A stretch of 64,000 nucleotides of DNA from Escherichia coli (lineage in GTDB: Bacteria > Pseudomonadota > Gammaproteobacteria > Enterobacterales > Enterobacteriaceae): the NCBI RefSeq assembly GCF_046105845.1, contig NZ_CP151004.1; one strand, written 5' to 3'. The position numbers and the translations under genes were made by a program. Shown one piece after another: positions 11,406 through 59,360 of the stretch; the stretch's first letter is position 1; each line of letters begins with the position of its first letter. Under the pieces are notes generated by a model that worked only from the letters and a program-made list of their open reading frames with translations, did no database searches and was not told where the DNA came from.

Positions 11406-12332
11406 ATGAATTATTCTTTAAAACAATTAAAGGTTTTCGTCACAGTAGCGCAGGAGAAAAGTTTTAGTCGTGCAGGAGAGCGTATCGGCCTGAGCCAGTC
11501 GGCAGTGAGTCACAGTGTGAAGGAGCTGGAAAATCATACTGGTGTTCGCCTGCTGGACAGAACCACGCGTGAAGTGGTGCTTACAGATGCAGGGCAGCAG
11601 TTGGCTTTGCGTCTTGAGCGACTGCTGGATGAACTTAACAGCACGTTGCGCGATACCGGGCGTATGGGGCAACAACTGAGCGGAAAAGTTCGGGTCGCTG
11701 CCAGCCAGACCATTTCCGCGCATCTTATTCCGCAATGCATTGCTGAAAGCCATCGCCGCTATCCAGATATTCAGTTTGTCCTGCACGATCGTCCGCAGCA
11801 GTGGGTGATGGAAAGTATTCGCCAGGGAGATGTCGATTTTGGCATCGTCATCGATCCAGGCCCAGTGAGCGATCTGCAATGTGAAGCGATTCTTTCCGAG
11901 CCTTTCTTCTTGCTTTGCCATCGCGATAGCGCTTTGGCCGAGGAAGATTATGTACCCTGGCAGGCATTACAGGGAGCGAAATTGGTGTTGCAGGATTACG
12001 CGTCAGGCAGCCGACCGCTGATTGACGCAGCTCTGGCGCGCAACGGTATTCAGGCGAATATTGTGCAGGAGATTGGTCATCCGGCGACGCTGTTCCCGAT
12101 GGTAGCCGCAGGCATCGGCATCAGTATTCTTCCCGCACTGGCGCTACCATTGCCTGAAGGTAGCCCACTGGTGATAAAGCGCATTACACCGGTGGTAGAA
12201 CGCCAGTTGATGCTGGTGCGCAGGAAGAACCGTTCACTTTCCACCGCCGCACAAGCGTTATGGGACGTGGTACGAGACCAGGGCCATGCGCTAATGGCTG
12301 GGCGGGAAGGGGATCCGTTGTATCAGATATAG
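11406..12332 (+). CDS. yfeR: LysR-family transcriptional regulator
   Basis: 308-aa ORF with N-terminal HTH ([38 protein letters not shown]) and LysR substrate-binding domain. Confidence 0.85.
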
Positions 12333-12664
12333 ATATCGATCTGAGTCGTTTTTTCAACAGGATTTGGAAGGGATGCATTCAGAGACAAACGCTGCTCTTT
12401 CTCCTGCGCTTTTTCTGCCTGCTGTCTTTGCAACTGCGCCAGTTGTGTTTCCAGTAGGGTGATTTGCTGCTGAATCAATTCGGCCTGTTTTTGCTTGTCT
12501 TCAGCACTGCCGCTAGTGTCTGCAATCTCTTTAATTTGTTGAGTGAGTTTGATGATTTGCTGACTTATCCGCGCAATTTGTGAAGCAACATCGCTACCTT
12601 CTGATGCCCTGTTACTACTCTGTGTTTGTATGGAAGGAATTGAAGTTGGAGAGATAGTGGCCAT
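12323..12664 (-). CDS. FlxA-like protein (Ser/Thr-rich N-terminus, Gln-rich coiled-coil); lies where K-12 carries xapABR-yfeN
   Basis: 113-aa [20 protein letters not shown]...[48 protein letters not shown]; GAGGA RBS 7 nt upstream; sigma-28-like promoter just upstream. Confidence 0.6.
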
Positions 12665-12692
12665 TGTTCAGTCCTCGTCACTGTACGAGGTA

Positions 12693-12719
12693 ATATCGGC
12701 AGAAGAACAAGGAACTTGA
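12693..12719 (-). promoter_or_regulatory. Putative sigma-28 (FliA) promoter for the FlxA-like gene
   Basis: Minus strand reads TCAAGTTC-N11-GCCGATAT versus consensus TAAAGTTT-N11-GCCGATAA, about 30 nt upstream of the start codon. Confidence 0.5.
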
Positions 12720-12751
12720 GAAGAAAAATCAATCTTACAAACCGCATATAG

Positions 12752-12778
12752 CAAAAAAGCGCCTTTAGGGCGCCTTTT
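12752..12778. terminator. Rho-independent terminator at the end of the valU-valX-valY-lysV tRNA operon
   Basis: Hairpin gcgcc-tttag-ggcgc flanked by A-run and T-run, immediately 3' of lysV on the minus strand. Confidence 0.7.
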
Positions 12779-12783
12779 TACAT

Positions 12784-12859
12784 TGGTGGGTCGTGCAGGA
12801 TTCGAACCTGCGACCAATTGATTAAAAGTCAACTGCTCTACCAACTGAGCTAACGACCC
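12784..12859 (-). tRNA. lysV: tRNA-Lys (anticodon UUU)
   Basis: Reverse complement matches canonical E. coli tRNA-Lys including CCA end. Confidence 0.95.
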
Positions 12860-44790: not shown

Positions 44791-47700
44791 TTAGTCATTT
44801 TGTTGACAGAAAACAGCAATCTCCTGGTCTAACTCTGCAATGTGTTCTTTAACAGAGTTCAGCAACTTAAGAATTTCAGGCTTGCTGTCATCTGAAACGG
44901 GCGTTATTTCTAACTGATGGCTAAGATTAATCAACTTTTGCAAATTCAGGATGTTAGCCGCACCGTGGATGCGATGAATACACTGATGGAAAATTCTGTT
45001 GTCGCCAGCTTCTAGTGCATGAAACGCAGCGGGTAGATCTTTATGCGTTTCATGCTGGAAAGTCATGAGAATCTCCTGCATCAGTTGTAGATCGTTCGCC
45101 GTATTATTTTTCAGGGCCTCGATATCAAGGTGGCGATACTGAGGTGCAATATGCGCAACCTGGTGTAACTGACTTAAATGTGTTTTCAGTACATCCAGGG
45201 TCAACGGTTTGAACAAACATAAGTTCATGCCGCAATTTAACCCTTTTTCACGTTCGTTAGCCTGTGCGTTGGCTGTAAGCCCCCAGATAGGTAAGGAAGA
45301 ATTTTGCTCACGGAGTTTGCGAGTCAACTCAAAACCATCCATATTCGGCATATTAACGTCAGTAATAAGCAGATCATAATGTTGCATACTGACTTTGTGT
45401 AGCGCTTGCACACCATCAGTGGCTTCATCAACATCATATCCTAATAGGTTTAGCTGGCGTTTGAGTAATAGCCTGTTGGTCGGATGATCATCCGCGATTA
45501 ATATACTCAACTTTTCAGGGAGTGTCATAGGTTGTTCTGCTTTTGCCTCGACAGTCGCCACTTGTTGGGTAATTTCTACCGGGATTGTGATCGTAAATGT
45601 CGTTCCTATGCCTGGATGACTTTCTAATGACAAATCGCCCTGCATGTTTTTAATTAATTCTTTGCAGATCATTAAGCCTAAACCAGAACCTGTTTGCTGA
45701 CGACCTGCACTTGTTTGGCTATAGCGTTTAAACAGTTGTTGTTGTTCTTCCTGCGATAATCCACTTCCAGAATCCATAATCGTCATTTTGATAACAGCGT
45801 GGTTGTCATCAATGTCACCCAGGGAGGTCGTAATTTTTACTGCCCCCTCGGTGGTAAATTTGAGAGCATTGCTCAGTAAATTAGATAAGACCTGCTTAAA
45901 CGCCTGAGGGTCGATCTTAACCTGGTAATGTTCAGGAAACGTACTGCTGCAACTTAATGCGATGGATTTGCTTGCAGCAATCGCACCGAAAGAGTGACAA
46001 GTGTTCTGGACTAAAGTAGGGATATCGACCCATTGTGGTTGAAGTTGATAGTTACCCGACTCAATTTTGTCGACATCAAGGATTTCACCAATTAAGCCGA
46101 GGAGTGATTGTCCGGTGGCGTAGGCAAGTGAAATCGCCTCCACCCGTTGCTCCTTGCTAAGACCAGAACCCGACAAAAGTTCCAGGAAGCCCATAATGGA
46201 GCTTATTGGTGTTCTTATTTCGTGACTCATTGTTGCCAGAAACTGGCTTTTTGCGACAGTTGCATTGATCGCTTTATTTCTCTCTACTTCGAGTGCATGA
46301 ATTAAATCACGCGTCTCGGTAATATCTTGCCAACCACAAATATAAACAGCATGATCGCTGGCTGGCAGATTGCATAATGTATGCCAGTGATTAATGCATC
46401 TTTTCTCGATGCCATTATCAATTTCAAATACCTGTGTGTATATTGTTCGATTTTCTTTCGTTTCTGCTGTGACTTCATGCGCATTAGAAAAAACATCTTT
46501 AAAGGGTGAGTCACTGTTTTCTAATGGTAACATTGCATTTTTGTAGTAATCCGCAGTGAAATAATGTTCAAAAGCACTATTATGACTAATGACATTACCT
46601 TGCCAGTTTACAACATAAGTTGGATTCGGTAAGGAATCCGAGAGTGCTTTTCGGAATGATATTTGGTTTTCTAAATCACCCTGAATGACTTTACGACGAC
46701 GAACTGAGCGTAACAGGTAGAATCCCCATAAAAGGCTACTGCCAACTAATAAAACGGATAATGTCGTGACAATATAAAATTGCTCGCTATAGAGGTCCCA
46801 TGTGTCAATGGTCACATTGGGCATTTTAATCCATTTTTCCGTCAGGCGCAGAACTTCGCTTGGGGGAATTGCATTCAGTGCTTTATTAATAATATCCTTA
46901 AGTTCCGGTTCTCCGCGAGGAAAAGCGAACGAAAGCGATGCATTCTGAACGCCGGGAATAAGAAAATGATAAAGTTCATTAGGATAGTAATGGTCGATCA
47001 TGTAACGCGAATTTAGCTGTGTCGCGACCAGAGCATCAAGTTCACCTTCTTTAACCTTGTGAAATGCAGCGCTGGCATTATCGACTTTTATCCACTCTAC
47101 CTCCGGATACATCTCTTTTAATTGCGAATGAAGCTCATAATAATATGGAATGGCAACTTTCATTCCTTTTTTTAATGTTTGTTCACTGTCAGGCGCTTTT
47201 TGCATGACAAAAACGTAAGGCGTTGTTATGAAGGCTTCAGCAAATGAAACATTATTTTCTCGATCTTCACTATAAATAGCGGCGGGCAATATATCCCATC
47301 CACCGGGATTAAGCTGTGTCCCCGCATGAATATTGTGTGAAACGGTGATCGGAGAAAAATTTAAACCTGTTTGCAAGGTAATAATATTAAGAATATCACC
47401 CATCACGCCCCGAACTGAGCCAGTTTCATCTGTCATAGAATAGGGTGGCGAGTAAGGATTTTCCAGCACCTTTAAATCGGGATGCTGCTTAATCCACTGT
47501 TTTTCATGTTCAGTGAGTTCTAATGGTTTGTTCAGAAAGGCCAGGTTTCCTGTATCAAGCCAATTTTGTGATACTTCATAGCGAACTTCATTTGTTAAAG
47601 CATCAACAAATCGATTGAGTACTTCATTAAGAACGACTGAATCTTTTCTGGTTAAGAAAAAGTTATATTGACGCGGCGAGTTATAATATTTCACTACATT

Positions 47701-56686: not shown

Positions 56687-57610
56687 ATGTCAGCCAAAGT
56701 ATGGGTTTTAGGGGATGCGGTCGTAGATCTCTTGCCAGAATCAGACGGGCGGCTACTGCCTTGTCCTGGCGGTGCGCCAGCTAACGTTGCGGTGGGAATC
56801 GCCAGATTAGGCGGAATAAGTGGGTTTATAGGTCGGGTGGGGGATGATCCTTTTGGTGCGTTAATGCAAAGAACGCTGCTAACTGAGGGTGTCGATATCA
56901 CGTATCTGAAGCAAGATGAATGGCACCGGACATCCACGGTGCTTGTCGATCTGAACGATCAAGGAGAACGTTCATTTACGTTTATGGTCCGCCCCAGTGC
57001 CGATCTTTTTTTAGAGACGACAGACTTGCCCTGCTGGCGACATGGCGAATGGTTACATCTCTGTTCAATTGCGTTGTCTGCCGAGCCTTCGCGTACCAGC
57101 GCATTTACAGCGATGACGGCGATCCGGCATGCCGGAGGTTTTGTCAGCTTCGATCCCAATATTCGTGAAGATCTATGGCAAGACGAGCATTTGCTCCGCT
57201 TGTGTTTGCGGCAGGCGCTACAACTGGCGGATGTCGTCAAGCTCTCGGAAGAAGAATGGCGACTTATCAGTGGAAAAACACAGAACGATCGGGATATATG
57301 CGCCCTGGCAAAAGAGTATGAGATCGCCATGCTGTTGGTGACTAAAGGTGCAGAAGGGGTGGTGGTCTGTTATCGAGGACAAGTTCACCATTTTGCTGGA
57401 ATGTCTGTGAATTGTGTCGATAGCACGGGGGCGGGAGATGCGTTCGTTGCCGGGTTACTCACAGGTCTGTCCTCTACGGGATTATCTACAGATGAAAGAG
57501 AAATGCGACAAATTATCGATCTCGCTCAACGTTGCGGAGCGCTTGCAGTAACAGCGAAAGGGGCAATGACAGCGCTGCCATGTCGACAAGAACTGGAAAG
57601 TGAGAAGTAA
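56687..57610 (+). CDS. cscK: Fructokinase (PfkB/ribokinase family)
   Basis: 307-aa ORF with PfkB signatures (GGAPANVAVGIARLGG and DSTGAGDAFVAGLL). Confidence 0.9.
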   Translation: MSAKVWVLGDAVVDLLPESDGRLLPCPGGAPANVAVGIARLGGISGFIGRVGDDPFGALMQRTLLTEGVDITYLKQDEWHRTSTVLVDLNDQGERSFTFMVRPSADLFLETTDLPCWRHGEWLHLCSIALSAEPSRTSAFTAMTAIRHAGGFVSFDPNIREDLWQDEHLLRLCLRQALQLADVVKLSEEEWRLISGKTQNDRDICALAKEYEIAMLLVTKGAEGVVVCYRGQVHHFAGMSVNCVDSTGAGDAFVAGLLTGLSSTGLSTDEREMRQIIDLAQRCGALAVTAKGAMTALPCRQELESEK

Positions 57611-57671
57611 ACGGCGAGGCCGCTCTTATCTCTAAATAGGACATGAATTTTTTAACGACAGGCAGGTAATT

Positions 57672-58919
57672 ATGGCACTGAATATTCCATTCAGAAATGC
57701 GTACTATCGTTTTGCATCCAGTTACTCATTTCTCTTTTTTATTTCCTGGTCGCTGTGGTGGTCGTTATACGCTATTTGGCTGAAAGGACATCTAGGATTA
57801 ACAGGGACTGAATTAGGTACACTTTATTCGGTCAACCAGTTTACCAGCATTCTATTTATGATGTTCTACGGCATCGTTCAGGATAAACTCGGTCTGAAGA
57901 AACCGCTCATCTGGTGTATGAGTTTCATTCTGGTCTTGACCGGACCGTTTATGATTTACGTTTATGAACCGTTACTGCAAAGCAATTTTTCTGTAGGTCT
58001 AATTCTGGGGGCGCTCTTTTTTGGCCTGGGGTATCTGGCGGGATGCGGTTTGCTTGACAGCTTCACTGAAAAAATGGCGCGAAATTTTCATTTCGAATAT
58101 GGAACAGCGCGCGCCTGGGGATCTTTTGGCTATGCTATTGGCGCGTTCTTTGCCGGTATATTTTTTAGTATCAGTCCCCATATCAACTTCTGGTTGGTCT
58201 CGCTATTTGGCGCTGTATTTATGATGATCAACATGCGTTTTAAAGATAAGGATCACCAGTGCATAGCGGCGGATGCGGGAGGGGTAAAAAAAGAGGATTT
58301 TATCGCAGTTTTCAAGGATCGAAACTTCTGGGTTTTTGTCATATTTATTGTGGGGACGTGGTCTTTCTATAACATTTTTGATCAACAACTCTTTCCTGTC
58401 TTTTATGCAGGTTTATTCGAATCACACGATGTAGGAACGCGCCTGTATGGTTATCTCAACTCATTCCAGGTGGTACTCGAAGCGCTGTGCATGGCGATTA
58501 TTCCTTTCTTTGTGAATCGGGTAGGGCCAAAAAATGCATTACTTATCGGTGTTGTGATTATGGCGTTGCGTATCCTTTCCTGCGCGCTGTTCGTTAACCC
58601 CTGGATTATTTCATTAGTGAAGCTGTTACATGCCATTGAGGTTCCACTTTGTGTCATATCCGTCTTCAAATACAGCGTGGCAAACTTTGATAAGCGCCTG
58701 TCGTCGACGATCTTTCTGATTGGTTTTCAAATTGCCAGTTCGCTTGGGATTGTGCTGCTTTCAACGCCGACTGGGATACTCTTTGACCACGCAGGCTACC
58801 AGACAGTTTTCTTCGCAATTTCGGGTATTGTCTGCCTGATGTTGCTATTTGGCATTTTCTTCTTGAGTAAAAAACGCGAGCAAATAGTTATGGAAACGCC
58901 TGTACCTTCAGCAATATAG
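57672..58919 (+). CDS. cscB: Sucrose:H+ symporter (LacY-like oligosaccharide:H+ symporter, MFS)
   Basis: 415-aa 12-TM MFS ORF downstream of cscK. Confidence 0.85.
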   Translation: MALNIPFRNAYYRFASSYSFLFFISWSLWWSLYAIWLKGHLGLTGTELGTLYSVNQFTSILFMMFYGIVQDKLGLKKPLIWCMSFILVLTGPFMIYVYEPLLQSNFSVGLILGALFFGLGYLAGCGLLDSFTEKMARNFHFEYGTARAWGSFGYAIGAFFAGIFFSISPHINFWLVSLFGAVFMMINMRFKDKDHQCIAADAGGVKKEDFIAVFKDRNFWVFVIFIVGTWSFYNIFDQQLFPVFYAGLFESHDVGTRLYGYLNSFQVVLEALCMAIIPFFVNRVGPKNALLIGVVIMALRILSCALFVNPWIISLVKLLHAIEVPLCVISVFKYSVANFDKRLSSTIFLIGFQIASSLGIVLLSTPTGILFDHAGYQTVFFAISGIVCLMLLFGIFFLSKKREQIVMETPVPSAI

Positions 58920-59360
58920 ACGTAAACTTTTTCCGGTTGTTGTCGATATCTCCATATCCCTCAACCGGAAAATAGTAATACAAAAATGCTTAGCCCAACT
59001 AATAATCACCTAATCCAAACGCCTCATTCATGTTCTGGTACAGTCGCTCAAATGTACTCCGGATACGCGGTTCGCTGATTTCCAGGACATTGTCGTCATT
59101 CAGCGACCTGTCCCGAGTATCACGGGCCTGCGAATTCATCAAGGAATGCATTGCAGAGTGAAGTATCGAGTCACGCCATATTTCGCTATCAGGATTCTGT
59201 ATGATGGTTACATCGCCCGGCCCAGGGCTGTTTAGTCATCAGCGCTTTCTGACAGTGCTGAGATTTCAACCTGTTGCAGTAAAAATGAGTAGATATAGGG
59301 CAAGTGTGCTGCCAAACCCATCTTTTACGGGGTGAAGGTAGATATTGTTAGAAGGGTATC

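Follow-up and report, generated by a model that had tools for sequence, protein, structure and literature searches.

What kind of gene fills the short interval between yfeR and the tRNA gene lysV in some Escherichia coli strains, and how does it relate to the xap genes that K-12 carries at the same place? We asked this question for a 64-kb stretch of E. coli DNA (contig NZ_CP151004.1, hereafter the window), whose positions are used as coordinates throughout; labels of the form Lnnn denote the loci of relatives that were examined. In our view the interval very probably holds a member of a yfeR-linked, chromosomal orthologue group of the FlxA family (Pfam PF14282), that is, a real gene whose only recognisable promoter is of the sigma-28 (FliA), class-3 type, with the mechanism and the ancestry that we propose below.

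The FlxA-like gene and its sigma-28 promoter motif

The gene order in the window is ligA-ypeB-yfeH-yfeR, then an interval of 451 bp, then lysV-valY-valX-valU and gltX. The interval extends from the end of yfeR (12332) to the start of lysV (12784), and its sole sizeable and credible open reading frame (ORF) lies on the minus strand at 12323-12664, including the stop codon, and encodes 113 amino acids (aa). An earlier interpretation made from the DNA letters alone (the sequence-only reading) had described an interval of about 450 bp with a single 113-aa ORF, a Ser/Thr-rich N-terminus and a Gln-rich coiled coil of the FlxA kind. All of this held: Ser and Thr account for 10 of the first 25 residues, there are 20 Gln in all, and the Pfam model PF14282 is matched with E = 7.1e-15 (residues 15-92 aligned with positions 4-82 of the 101-position model). 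Both Pfam and RefSeq place the ORF in the FlxA family, and so it did not turn out to be an unrelated conserved protein; RefSeq calls an identical protein 'FlxA-like family protein' (WP_000201400.1), and in O157:H7 Sakai the same gene is named flxA (ECs_3279).

A word-indexed search for homologues yielded only 8 because the sequence is of low complexity, and it was replaced by an exhaustive search of representatives and a genome scan with one genome per bacterial species. The scan gave 80 loci encoding relatives, and 81 upstream regions were compared. The orthologous ORF is intact in all 80 species loci (106-123 aa), and the orthologues share an MTTI... start, a heptad core and a C-terminal end of the form ...QIDIYI/V. 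Judged by these intact orthologues with their conserved ends, this is evidently a real protein-coding gene. PF14282 was matched by all 71 aligned relatives (E ≤ 0.001), and secondary matches such as those to Flagellin_C, FapA and Effector_1, each found in one of the 71 members at the same threshold, were rejected as coiled-coil noise. An NCBIfam scan of the protein gave only sub-threshold noise of the same type and no curated family. Across the helical core, the protein is 45% identical to the FlxA of the K-12 Qin prophage. It matches the phage family phrog_11044 with E = 1.4e-9, compared to 1.8e-71 for K-12 FlxA, and this weak match indicates that it belongs to a separate, chromosomal FlxA subfamily.

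In an AlphaFold 2 model based on 71 sequences, with a mean predicted local distance difference test score (pLDDT) of 68, residues 1-21 and the C-terminus are disordered and two helices (22-49 and 54-97, pLDDT 82-88) form a hairpin. A sequence-profile search against the PDB retrieved designed or generic coiled coils only. The top Foldseek match, the FliJ-like CdsO (E = 0.2), was discounted, as any helical hairpin would score so.

The sequence-only reading had also proposed a FliA-like promoter with an 11-nucleotide (nt) spacer and a GAGGA ribosome-binding site, and these elements are indeed present. On the minus strand, the lysV terminator is followed by about 40 nt, the -35 element TCAAGTTC (12712-12719), 11 nt, the -10 element GCCGATAT (12693-12700), 16 nt, the Shine-Dalgarno motif GAGGA (12672-12676, as read from the sequence), 7 nt and the ATG (12662-12664). 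The sigma-28 consensus consists of TAAAGTTT and GCCGATAA, 11 nt apart; the elements found here agree with it at 6 of 8 and 7 of 8 positions, respectively, and have the same spacer. With three mismatches allowed, the bare consensus has two matches in the window where 0.53 are expected, and 11 of 100 shuffles reach two. Since a consensus match alone is weak evidence, we built a position weight matrix (PWM) from the 52 FliA motifs that were determined by chromatin immunoprecipitation sequencing (ChIP-seq; Fitzgerald et al. 2014, PMC4183435 Table 2). Both elements match this PWM, and the promoter of the flxA-like gene scores 18.8 bits, the second best value in the 128 kb scanned. This is comparable to the leave-one-out scores of the flxA (19.5), flgKL (18.9) and fliDST (18.5) promoters; in 1.07 Mb of control DNA, scores of at least 18 occur with a frequency of 2.8e-6 per position. 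We found no sigma-70-like site between the lysV terminator and the ATG.

The promoter is convincing because 27 nt separate it from the ATG of a FlxA-family gene and because it is conserved in all orthologous upstream regions: all 81 of them carry TCAAG-N-GCCGATA amid non-conserved DNA. The best PWM match in the 200 nt upstream reaches at least 10 bits in 78 of the 80 loci and ends 24-35 nt before the ATG, whereas 0.017 such matches are expected per upstream window (as estimated from 1.07 Mb of control positions at the same loci). When the upstream regions (80 unique) were anchored on the -10 element, the near-invariant GCCGATA showed 1.7-2.0 bits per position and the -35 element 0.7-2.0, compared to about 0.1 in the spacer and the flanks. 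The start of the -35 pentamer T-N-A-A-G/C, mostly TCAAG, precedes the -10 element by 19 nt in 62 loci and by 20 nt in 18; the -10 element itself starts 27-44 nt, mostly 34-40 nt, before the ATG. Furthermore, the motif recurs in three more distant members of the family, which share 29-38% identity and of which two lie outside the gltX-ligA region; it takes the forms TCAAGTTT-N11-GCCGATAT, TCAAGTTT-N11-GACGATAA and TAAAGGTA-N11-GCCGATAG, at a distance of 24-37 nt from the ATG. From its occurrence both in the orthologues and in the distant members we infer that the FlxA family inherits the sigma-28 promoter together with the gene. By its score, its geometry and its deep conservation, the motif has the properties of a genuine sigma-28 promoter.

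In the flagellar cascade, FlhDC activates fliA, and the anti-sigma factor FlgM is exported when the hook-basal body is complete. We propose that free FliA-RNA polymerase would then start transcription about 7 nt 3' of GCCGATAT, for which the sigma-28 geometry predicts a position of 12684-12688 on the minus strand. The transcript would have a leader of about 21 nt with the GAGGA ribosome-binding site and would be translated into a protein of 113 aa, in which a disordered N-terminus rich in Ser and Thr is followed by two helices that form a coiled-coil hairpin. The GC-rich hairpin at 12759-12773, with T and A runs on both sides, is the terminator of the valU-valX-valY-lysV tRNA operon; it insulates the sigma-28 promoter, which begins 40 nt further on.

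A hairpin in the leader (CCTCGT-N6-ACGAGG, 12673-12690, minus strand) was considered as a structure that sequesters the Shine-Dalgarno motif. It occurs as a stable structure in E. coli and also, with G-U-compatible changes, in Pseudocitrobacter, and would have z ~ -2.4 if transcription began right after the -10 element. We rejected it as a family feature because its 5' arm precedes the expected start of transcription and because the leaders of the 81 orthologues fold no better than shuffles (mean z -0.19 and +0.16).

K-12 FlxA (b1566, Qin prophage), which is the founding member of PF14282 and was named for its FliA-dependent expression, offers a known system for comparison. The two proteins share the Pfam family, the helical core, a similar length (110 and 113 aa) and the same architecture. 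The K-12 promoter is TAAAGATT-N11-GCCGATAG and ends 22 nt before the ATG, compared to TCAAGTTC-N11-GCCGATAT and 27 nt here. On the other hand, the K-12 gene is borne by a prophage, whereas the gene in the window is chromosomal and converges on yfeR at a conserved core position, and the different strength of their phrog_11044 matches sets the two apart as distinct subfamilies. FliA dependence is predicted for the present gene and experimental for K-12 flxA, whose expression falls from 280 to 2 in a delta-fliA strain and which has a FliA ChIP peak (PMC4183435). A -28-fold change in delta-fliA is also on record for K-12 flxA, and Ide & Kutsukake 1997, as cited in PMC4183435, found the gene to be FliA-dependent and dispensable for motility. 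By analogy, the flxA-like protein is probably dispensable for motility as well; about three quarters of E. coli genomes, motile K-12 derivatives among them, are without this gene. Sakai ECs_3279 is the same gene at the same locus, with 96% DNA identity and identical -35, spacer, -10 and ribosome-binding site, and in strains such as 118UI the flxA-like gene is 100% identical to that of the window. ECs_3279 and WP_000201400.1 are database annotations for which our literature search found no functional or regulatory study.

Several points weigh against our interpretation of the gene. The match to the bare consensus is not significant within one 64-kb window. The FliA dependence of this gene, its transcription start and the existence of the protein have been derived from DNA letters, and the searchable literature holds no experiment on this gene. 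The family motif GVNxPS is absent before the C-terminus, which makes the version of E. coli and Pseudocitrobacter a somewhat divergent member. Foldseek returned nothing from the PDB at E ≤ 0.001, and no terminator-like site was detected on the minus strand 3' of the ORF.

Possible roles of the protein and its transcript

Next, we asked what the gene might do. No function could be read from sequence or fold homology of the protein. Among the rival explanations the one that survives best, and which in our estimate comes close to an even chance, is that the sigma-28-controlled protein acts inside the cell, for instance by serving the motor, chemoreceptor arrays or cyclic di-GMP signalling as a coiled-coil adaptor or a regulator. 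Intracellular action is the rule among the non-structural class-3 genes (ycgR, pdeH/yhjH, che, tar), and a helical hairpin such as the one modelled here is a generic protein-protein interaction module. For example, ycgR, pdeH (yhjH), ynjH, yjcZ and modA resemble the flxA-like gene in having a sigma-28 promoter outside the flagellar clusters and PWM scores in a similar range (PMC4183435), and differ from it in that their roles are known or suspected to be intracellular.

Alternatively, the flagellar type III apparatus may export the FlxA-like protein itself as a late substrate. This is our favoured guess, which we hold tentatively and with the balance against it. FlgK, FliD, FliC, FlgL, FlgM and FlgE are flagellar export substrates. 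In a culture-supernatant proteome, K-12 FlxA was increased along with precisely these six proteins (PMC6391000), which speaks against an intracellular site of action. The same exoproteome, on the other hand, contains the cytoplasmic CheY (PMC6391000), and lysis is therefore a possible source of the FlxA found there, as the intracellular explanation would have it. The second dataset concerns growth at 42 °C, where the export apparatus fails and class-3 promoter activity is about 2%; flxA was singled out because its protein and mRNA changed in opposite ways (PMC6551532). The direction of this change, by our inference, was down for the mRNA and up for the protein. Such opposite changes at the point where export fails also argue against an intracellular role, as does the disordered N-terminus of about 21 residues, which in the model would fit an export signal. 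Together with the two K-12 FlxA datasets, this predicted N-terminus makes the export hypothesis a reasonable one, and the combination of a disordered N-terminus and a helical hairpin, as well as a sigma-28 promoter that travels with the gene wherever it is located, would fit it too. It counts against the idea, however, that the support is indirect: both observations were made on a paralogue with 45% identity.

We consider a broader version rather unlikely, in which the FlxA family constitutes an unrecognised class of small late flagellar type III substrates that are made after hook completion and secreted, and in which the overlap with yfeR lets FliA-driven transcription interfere with that gene. 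If it were true, FlxA-family proteins would be flagellum-dependent secreted factors, and FliA-driven transcription across the overlap would couple a LysR regulon to the motile state. In any case, the two published hints of secretion make the 25-year-old question of the role of FlxA directly testable.

The relation to yfeR can be described in more concrete terms. This gene (11406-12332, plus strand) encodes a LysR-family regulator and converges on the flxA-like gene, so that their 3' ends overlap by 10 nt (12323-12332). The two genes adjoin in 72 of the 80 species loci, nearly all of which lie within the gltX-tRNA-...-yfeH-ligA region, and a convergent 3' overlap is found in 68 of these 72 (10 nt in 39, 4 nt in 28 and 22 nt in one). 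Given the tail-to-tail overlap and the lack of a detected terminator, the predicted transcript very probably reads through antisense into the 3' end of yfeR.

One could go further and suppose that the main output of the promoter is this antisense transcription, which would link motility to the YfeR regulon, to which the divergent transporter gene yfeH belongs, and leave the protein secondary. Overlaps of 4 or 10 nt in 67 of the 72 species leave no room for a terminator between the genes, and none was seen 3' of the ORF. We nevertheless regard this explanation as improbable. The length of the protein, its N-terminal start, its heptad core and its C-terminal motif are conserved across the 80 species; moreover, the gene and its sigma-28 promoter persist where yfeR is missing (L016, L021, L032, L065, L071, L090) and in the unrelated contexts of L087 and L088. 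Antisense read-through may still be an added effect of a FliA-controlled, protein-coding gene.

Ancestry of the interval and its alleles in E. coli

As the sequence-only reading had it, K-12 carries xapR-xapB-xapA-yfeN in this interval, and comparison with the K-12 locus confirmed the order yfeN-xapA-xapB-xapR from the side of yfeR. According to blastn, homology to K-12 stops exactly at the yfeR stop (12333) and restarts within the lysV terminator (12743). The allele-specific segment in between (12334-12742, 409 bp) consists only of the ORF and its promoter and has a GC content of 45-49%, compared to 51-55% around it. The other border of the interval is the tRNA-Lys(UUU) gene lysV (12784-12859, minus strand), which was identified by ARAGORN and Rfam; the Rfam scan of the window found tRNAs and no other RNA family. 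The locus is thus polymorphic and adjacent to a tRNA gene, just as had been supposed.

That the flxA-like gene occupies the position of the xap genes, on the other hand, had to be turned around. A duplicated tRNA 3' end is the usual scar of an insertion at a tRNA gene. Between the same breakpoints K-12 has 4.56 kb, in which yfeN-xapA-xapB-xapR is accompanied by a duplicate of the 3' end of lysV with its terminator. The order lysV-xapR-xapB-xapA-flxA-like-yfeR is found in several Enterobacter species, in Citrobacter amalonaticus and in Atlantibacter subterranea, and in Silvania confinis the xap genes are on the other side of the flxA-like gene. Since in several genera the xap genes stand between lysV and a retained flxA-like gene, xapRBA is the insertion and the flxA-like gene the ancestral resident. 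In Enterobacteriaceae and Erwiniaceae it is the latter that originally stood between lysV and yfeR, and K-12-type E. coli has additionally lost it. In the course of events that we propose, the ancestral gene has been kept by about one quarter of E. coli, and the other three quarters, including K-12 and S88, carry xapR-xapB-xapA-yfeN instead.

A 35%-identical family member (L090, GCA_902168455.1, 441-5670) lies between gltX and ypeB-ligA without yfeR or yfeH. The gene was thus located between gltX and ligA before it became paired with yfeR.

A different origin has to be considered as well, namely that the gene is the recently acquired cargo of an island or prophage at a tRNA-Lys hot spot, which displaced xapABR-yfeN in the way that flxA resides in Qin. 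The interval does border a tRNA gene and is polymorphic in E. coli, and K-12 FlxA does belong to the phage family phrog_11044. In addition, the segment is unusually similar to that of an uncultured Pseudocitrobacter (L006/L007), with identities of 94% for the flxA-like DNA, 92% for the upstream region and 85-89% for yfeR, compared to 80-82% for the flanking genes yfeH and ligA. The opposite holds for Kluyvera, Citrobacter and Enterobacter, where the flanks are better conserved than yfeR and the flxA-like gene. The excess over the flanks in Pseudocitrobacter suggests an exchange of the yfeR-flxA-like segment between Escherichia and Pseudocitrobacter, in either direction, so that some transfer between genera may well have taken place. 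Nevertheless, we rejected cargo of a tRNA-linked island or prophage as very improbable. The same gene with the same convergent yfeR overlap is present in 68 of 72 species from two families, and synteny with yfeR is kept in 72 of the 80 loci. The 409-bp segment holds no integrase or other mobility gene, no flanking direct repeats and no anomalous GC content, the match to the phage family is weak, and the duplicated lysV 3' end sits on the K-12 xap allele, next to xapR.

We wanted to know how the two alleles are distributed in the population, and counted them in a set of 5426 complete E. coli genomes, of which 1316 (~24%) have the flxA-like segment and 4074 have xapA. A chimeric query with both alleles found 5390 genomes, which is exactly the sum of 1316 and 4074; no E. 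coli genome thus has both alleles, and 36 have neither. Carriers of the flxA-like allele include O157:H7, O145, BL21(DE3)/B and 042. The B2 strain S88 has the same xap-yfeN layout as K-12, with a 92% identical xapA. No Escherichia species representative was among the 80 best loci of the species-level genome scan, which suggests that within Escherichia the flxA-like allele is confined to part of E. coli.

The sequence-only reading had further concluded that the strain is probably unable to use xanthosine via XapAB. Using tblastn, we found no XapA, XapB or YfeN in the window, where XapR matches only its paralogue YfeR (26%). Because the window holds none of them and the alleles never co-occur, XapAB are likely absent from this strain. 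The either-or relation of the flxA-like gene and xapABR also offers a simple means of predicting from the genotype whether an E. coli strain utilises xanthosine.

Both the gene and the xap polymorphism are largely known. The gene is named in RefSeq, and the xap region has been catalogued by comparative genomic hybridisation as a K-12 'K-island' relative to O157:H7 (KI#103 / K-loop#178); the xap genes have also been reported as accessory, with a prevalence of about 60-65% in one collection. The gain in annotation is therefore very small. The K-island reports describe the same presence/absence polymorphism at lysV-yfeR, but only for xap, and are silent on the flxA-like alternative allele and its exclusivity with xapA. 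Our contribution lies in a strong comparative proof that the sigma-28 promoter is real, in the conservation of the overlap with yfeR, in the finding that the allele and xapA strictly exclude each other, and in a testable export hypothesis. Since the genome-wide FliA maps were made in K-12, which does not have the gene, a conserved class-3 gene at a core position is missing from the reference FliA regulon, even though it occurs in about 24% of E. coli genomes, among them O157:H7, BL21 and 042.

There is further variation at the locus. The identity of xapA to K-12 is at least 99% in 2416 genomes and 90-95% in 1642, including S88 and ATCC 25922 (~92%). The divergence between these classes is far above that of typical core genes, and the xap allele is thus itself dimorphic. 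S88 also has an additional DUF1427 ORF between xapR and xapB (L086 2973-3131). A third allele is found in E. coli HH97 (L004 4644-5860), where about 1.2 kb past yfeR contain an unrelated hypothetical ORF and a remnant of the flxA-like 5' end and promoter with 84% identity (window 12569-12720); this locus has no xap genes and only two copies of tRNA-Val. In Sakai (L003 1584-2510), yfeR is annotated as a pseudogene, and the flxA-like gene and its promoter are intact. Finally, the number of repeats 3' of lysV varies. On the way from lysV to xapR, the lysV 3' end and terminator occur twice in tandem in K-12, whereas the window has a single copy (12743-12783; the other coordinates of the comparison are L002 3330-3539 and L001 6532-6657). 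Strain VCSW7, whose DNA matches that of the window with 100% identity along the 548 bp between the 3' end of yfeR and the start of lysV, has an extra block of about 156 bp that is absent from the window and holds a 126-bp unit annotated as 'RtT sRNA'.

Other FliA-type motifs in the window

The weakest of the alternatives, that TCAAGTTC-N11-GCCGATAT is a coincidence and the gene is silent or driven from another promoter, is close to refuted: while matches with three mismatches arise by chance at the rate given above and a better-scoring motif at 58923 has no obvious gene behind it, the promoter is conserved in every orthologous region at a fixed distance from the ATG and amid non-conserved spacer and flanks, it recurs in the three distant homologues, and no sigma-70-like alternative was found.

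The better-scoring motif, the best FliA-type match of the window, is TAAACTTT-N11-GTCGATAT at 58923-58950 on the plus strand (23.1 bits). It begins 4 nt past the stop codon of cscB (58919), at the junction with the end of a KplE1-like prophage (torI), and the sole ORF close behind it has 30 aa (58986-59078). Orphan and intragenic FliA sites are common in K-12. The motif could be a site of this type, a chance site, or the promoter of an unannotated small gene or RNA. Another intragenic motif, TCAACTTCAACCACAATGGGTCGATATC in evgS (46021-46048, minus strand), is identical to the weak intragenic FliA ChIP-seq site in evgS of K-12 (PMC4183435 Table 2), and this site is thus conserved in the present strain. 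Upstream of the 58923 motif, the window carries accessory sucrose genes that K-12 does not have, cscK (fructokinase, 307 aa) and cscB (sucrose permease, 415 aa), at 56687-58919 on the plus strand.

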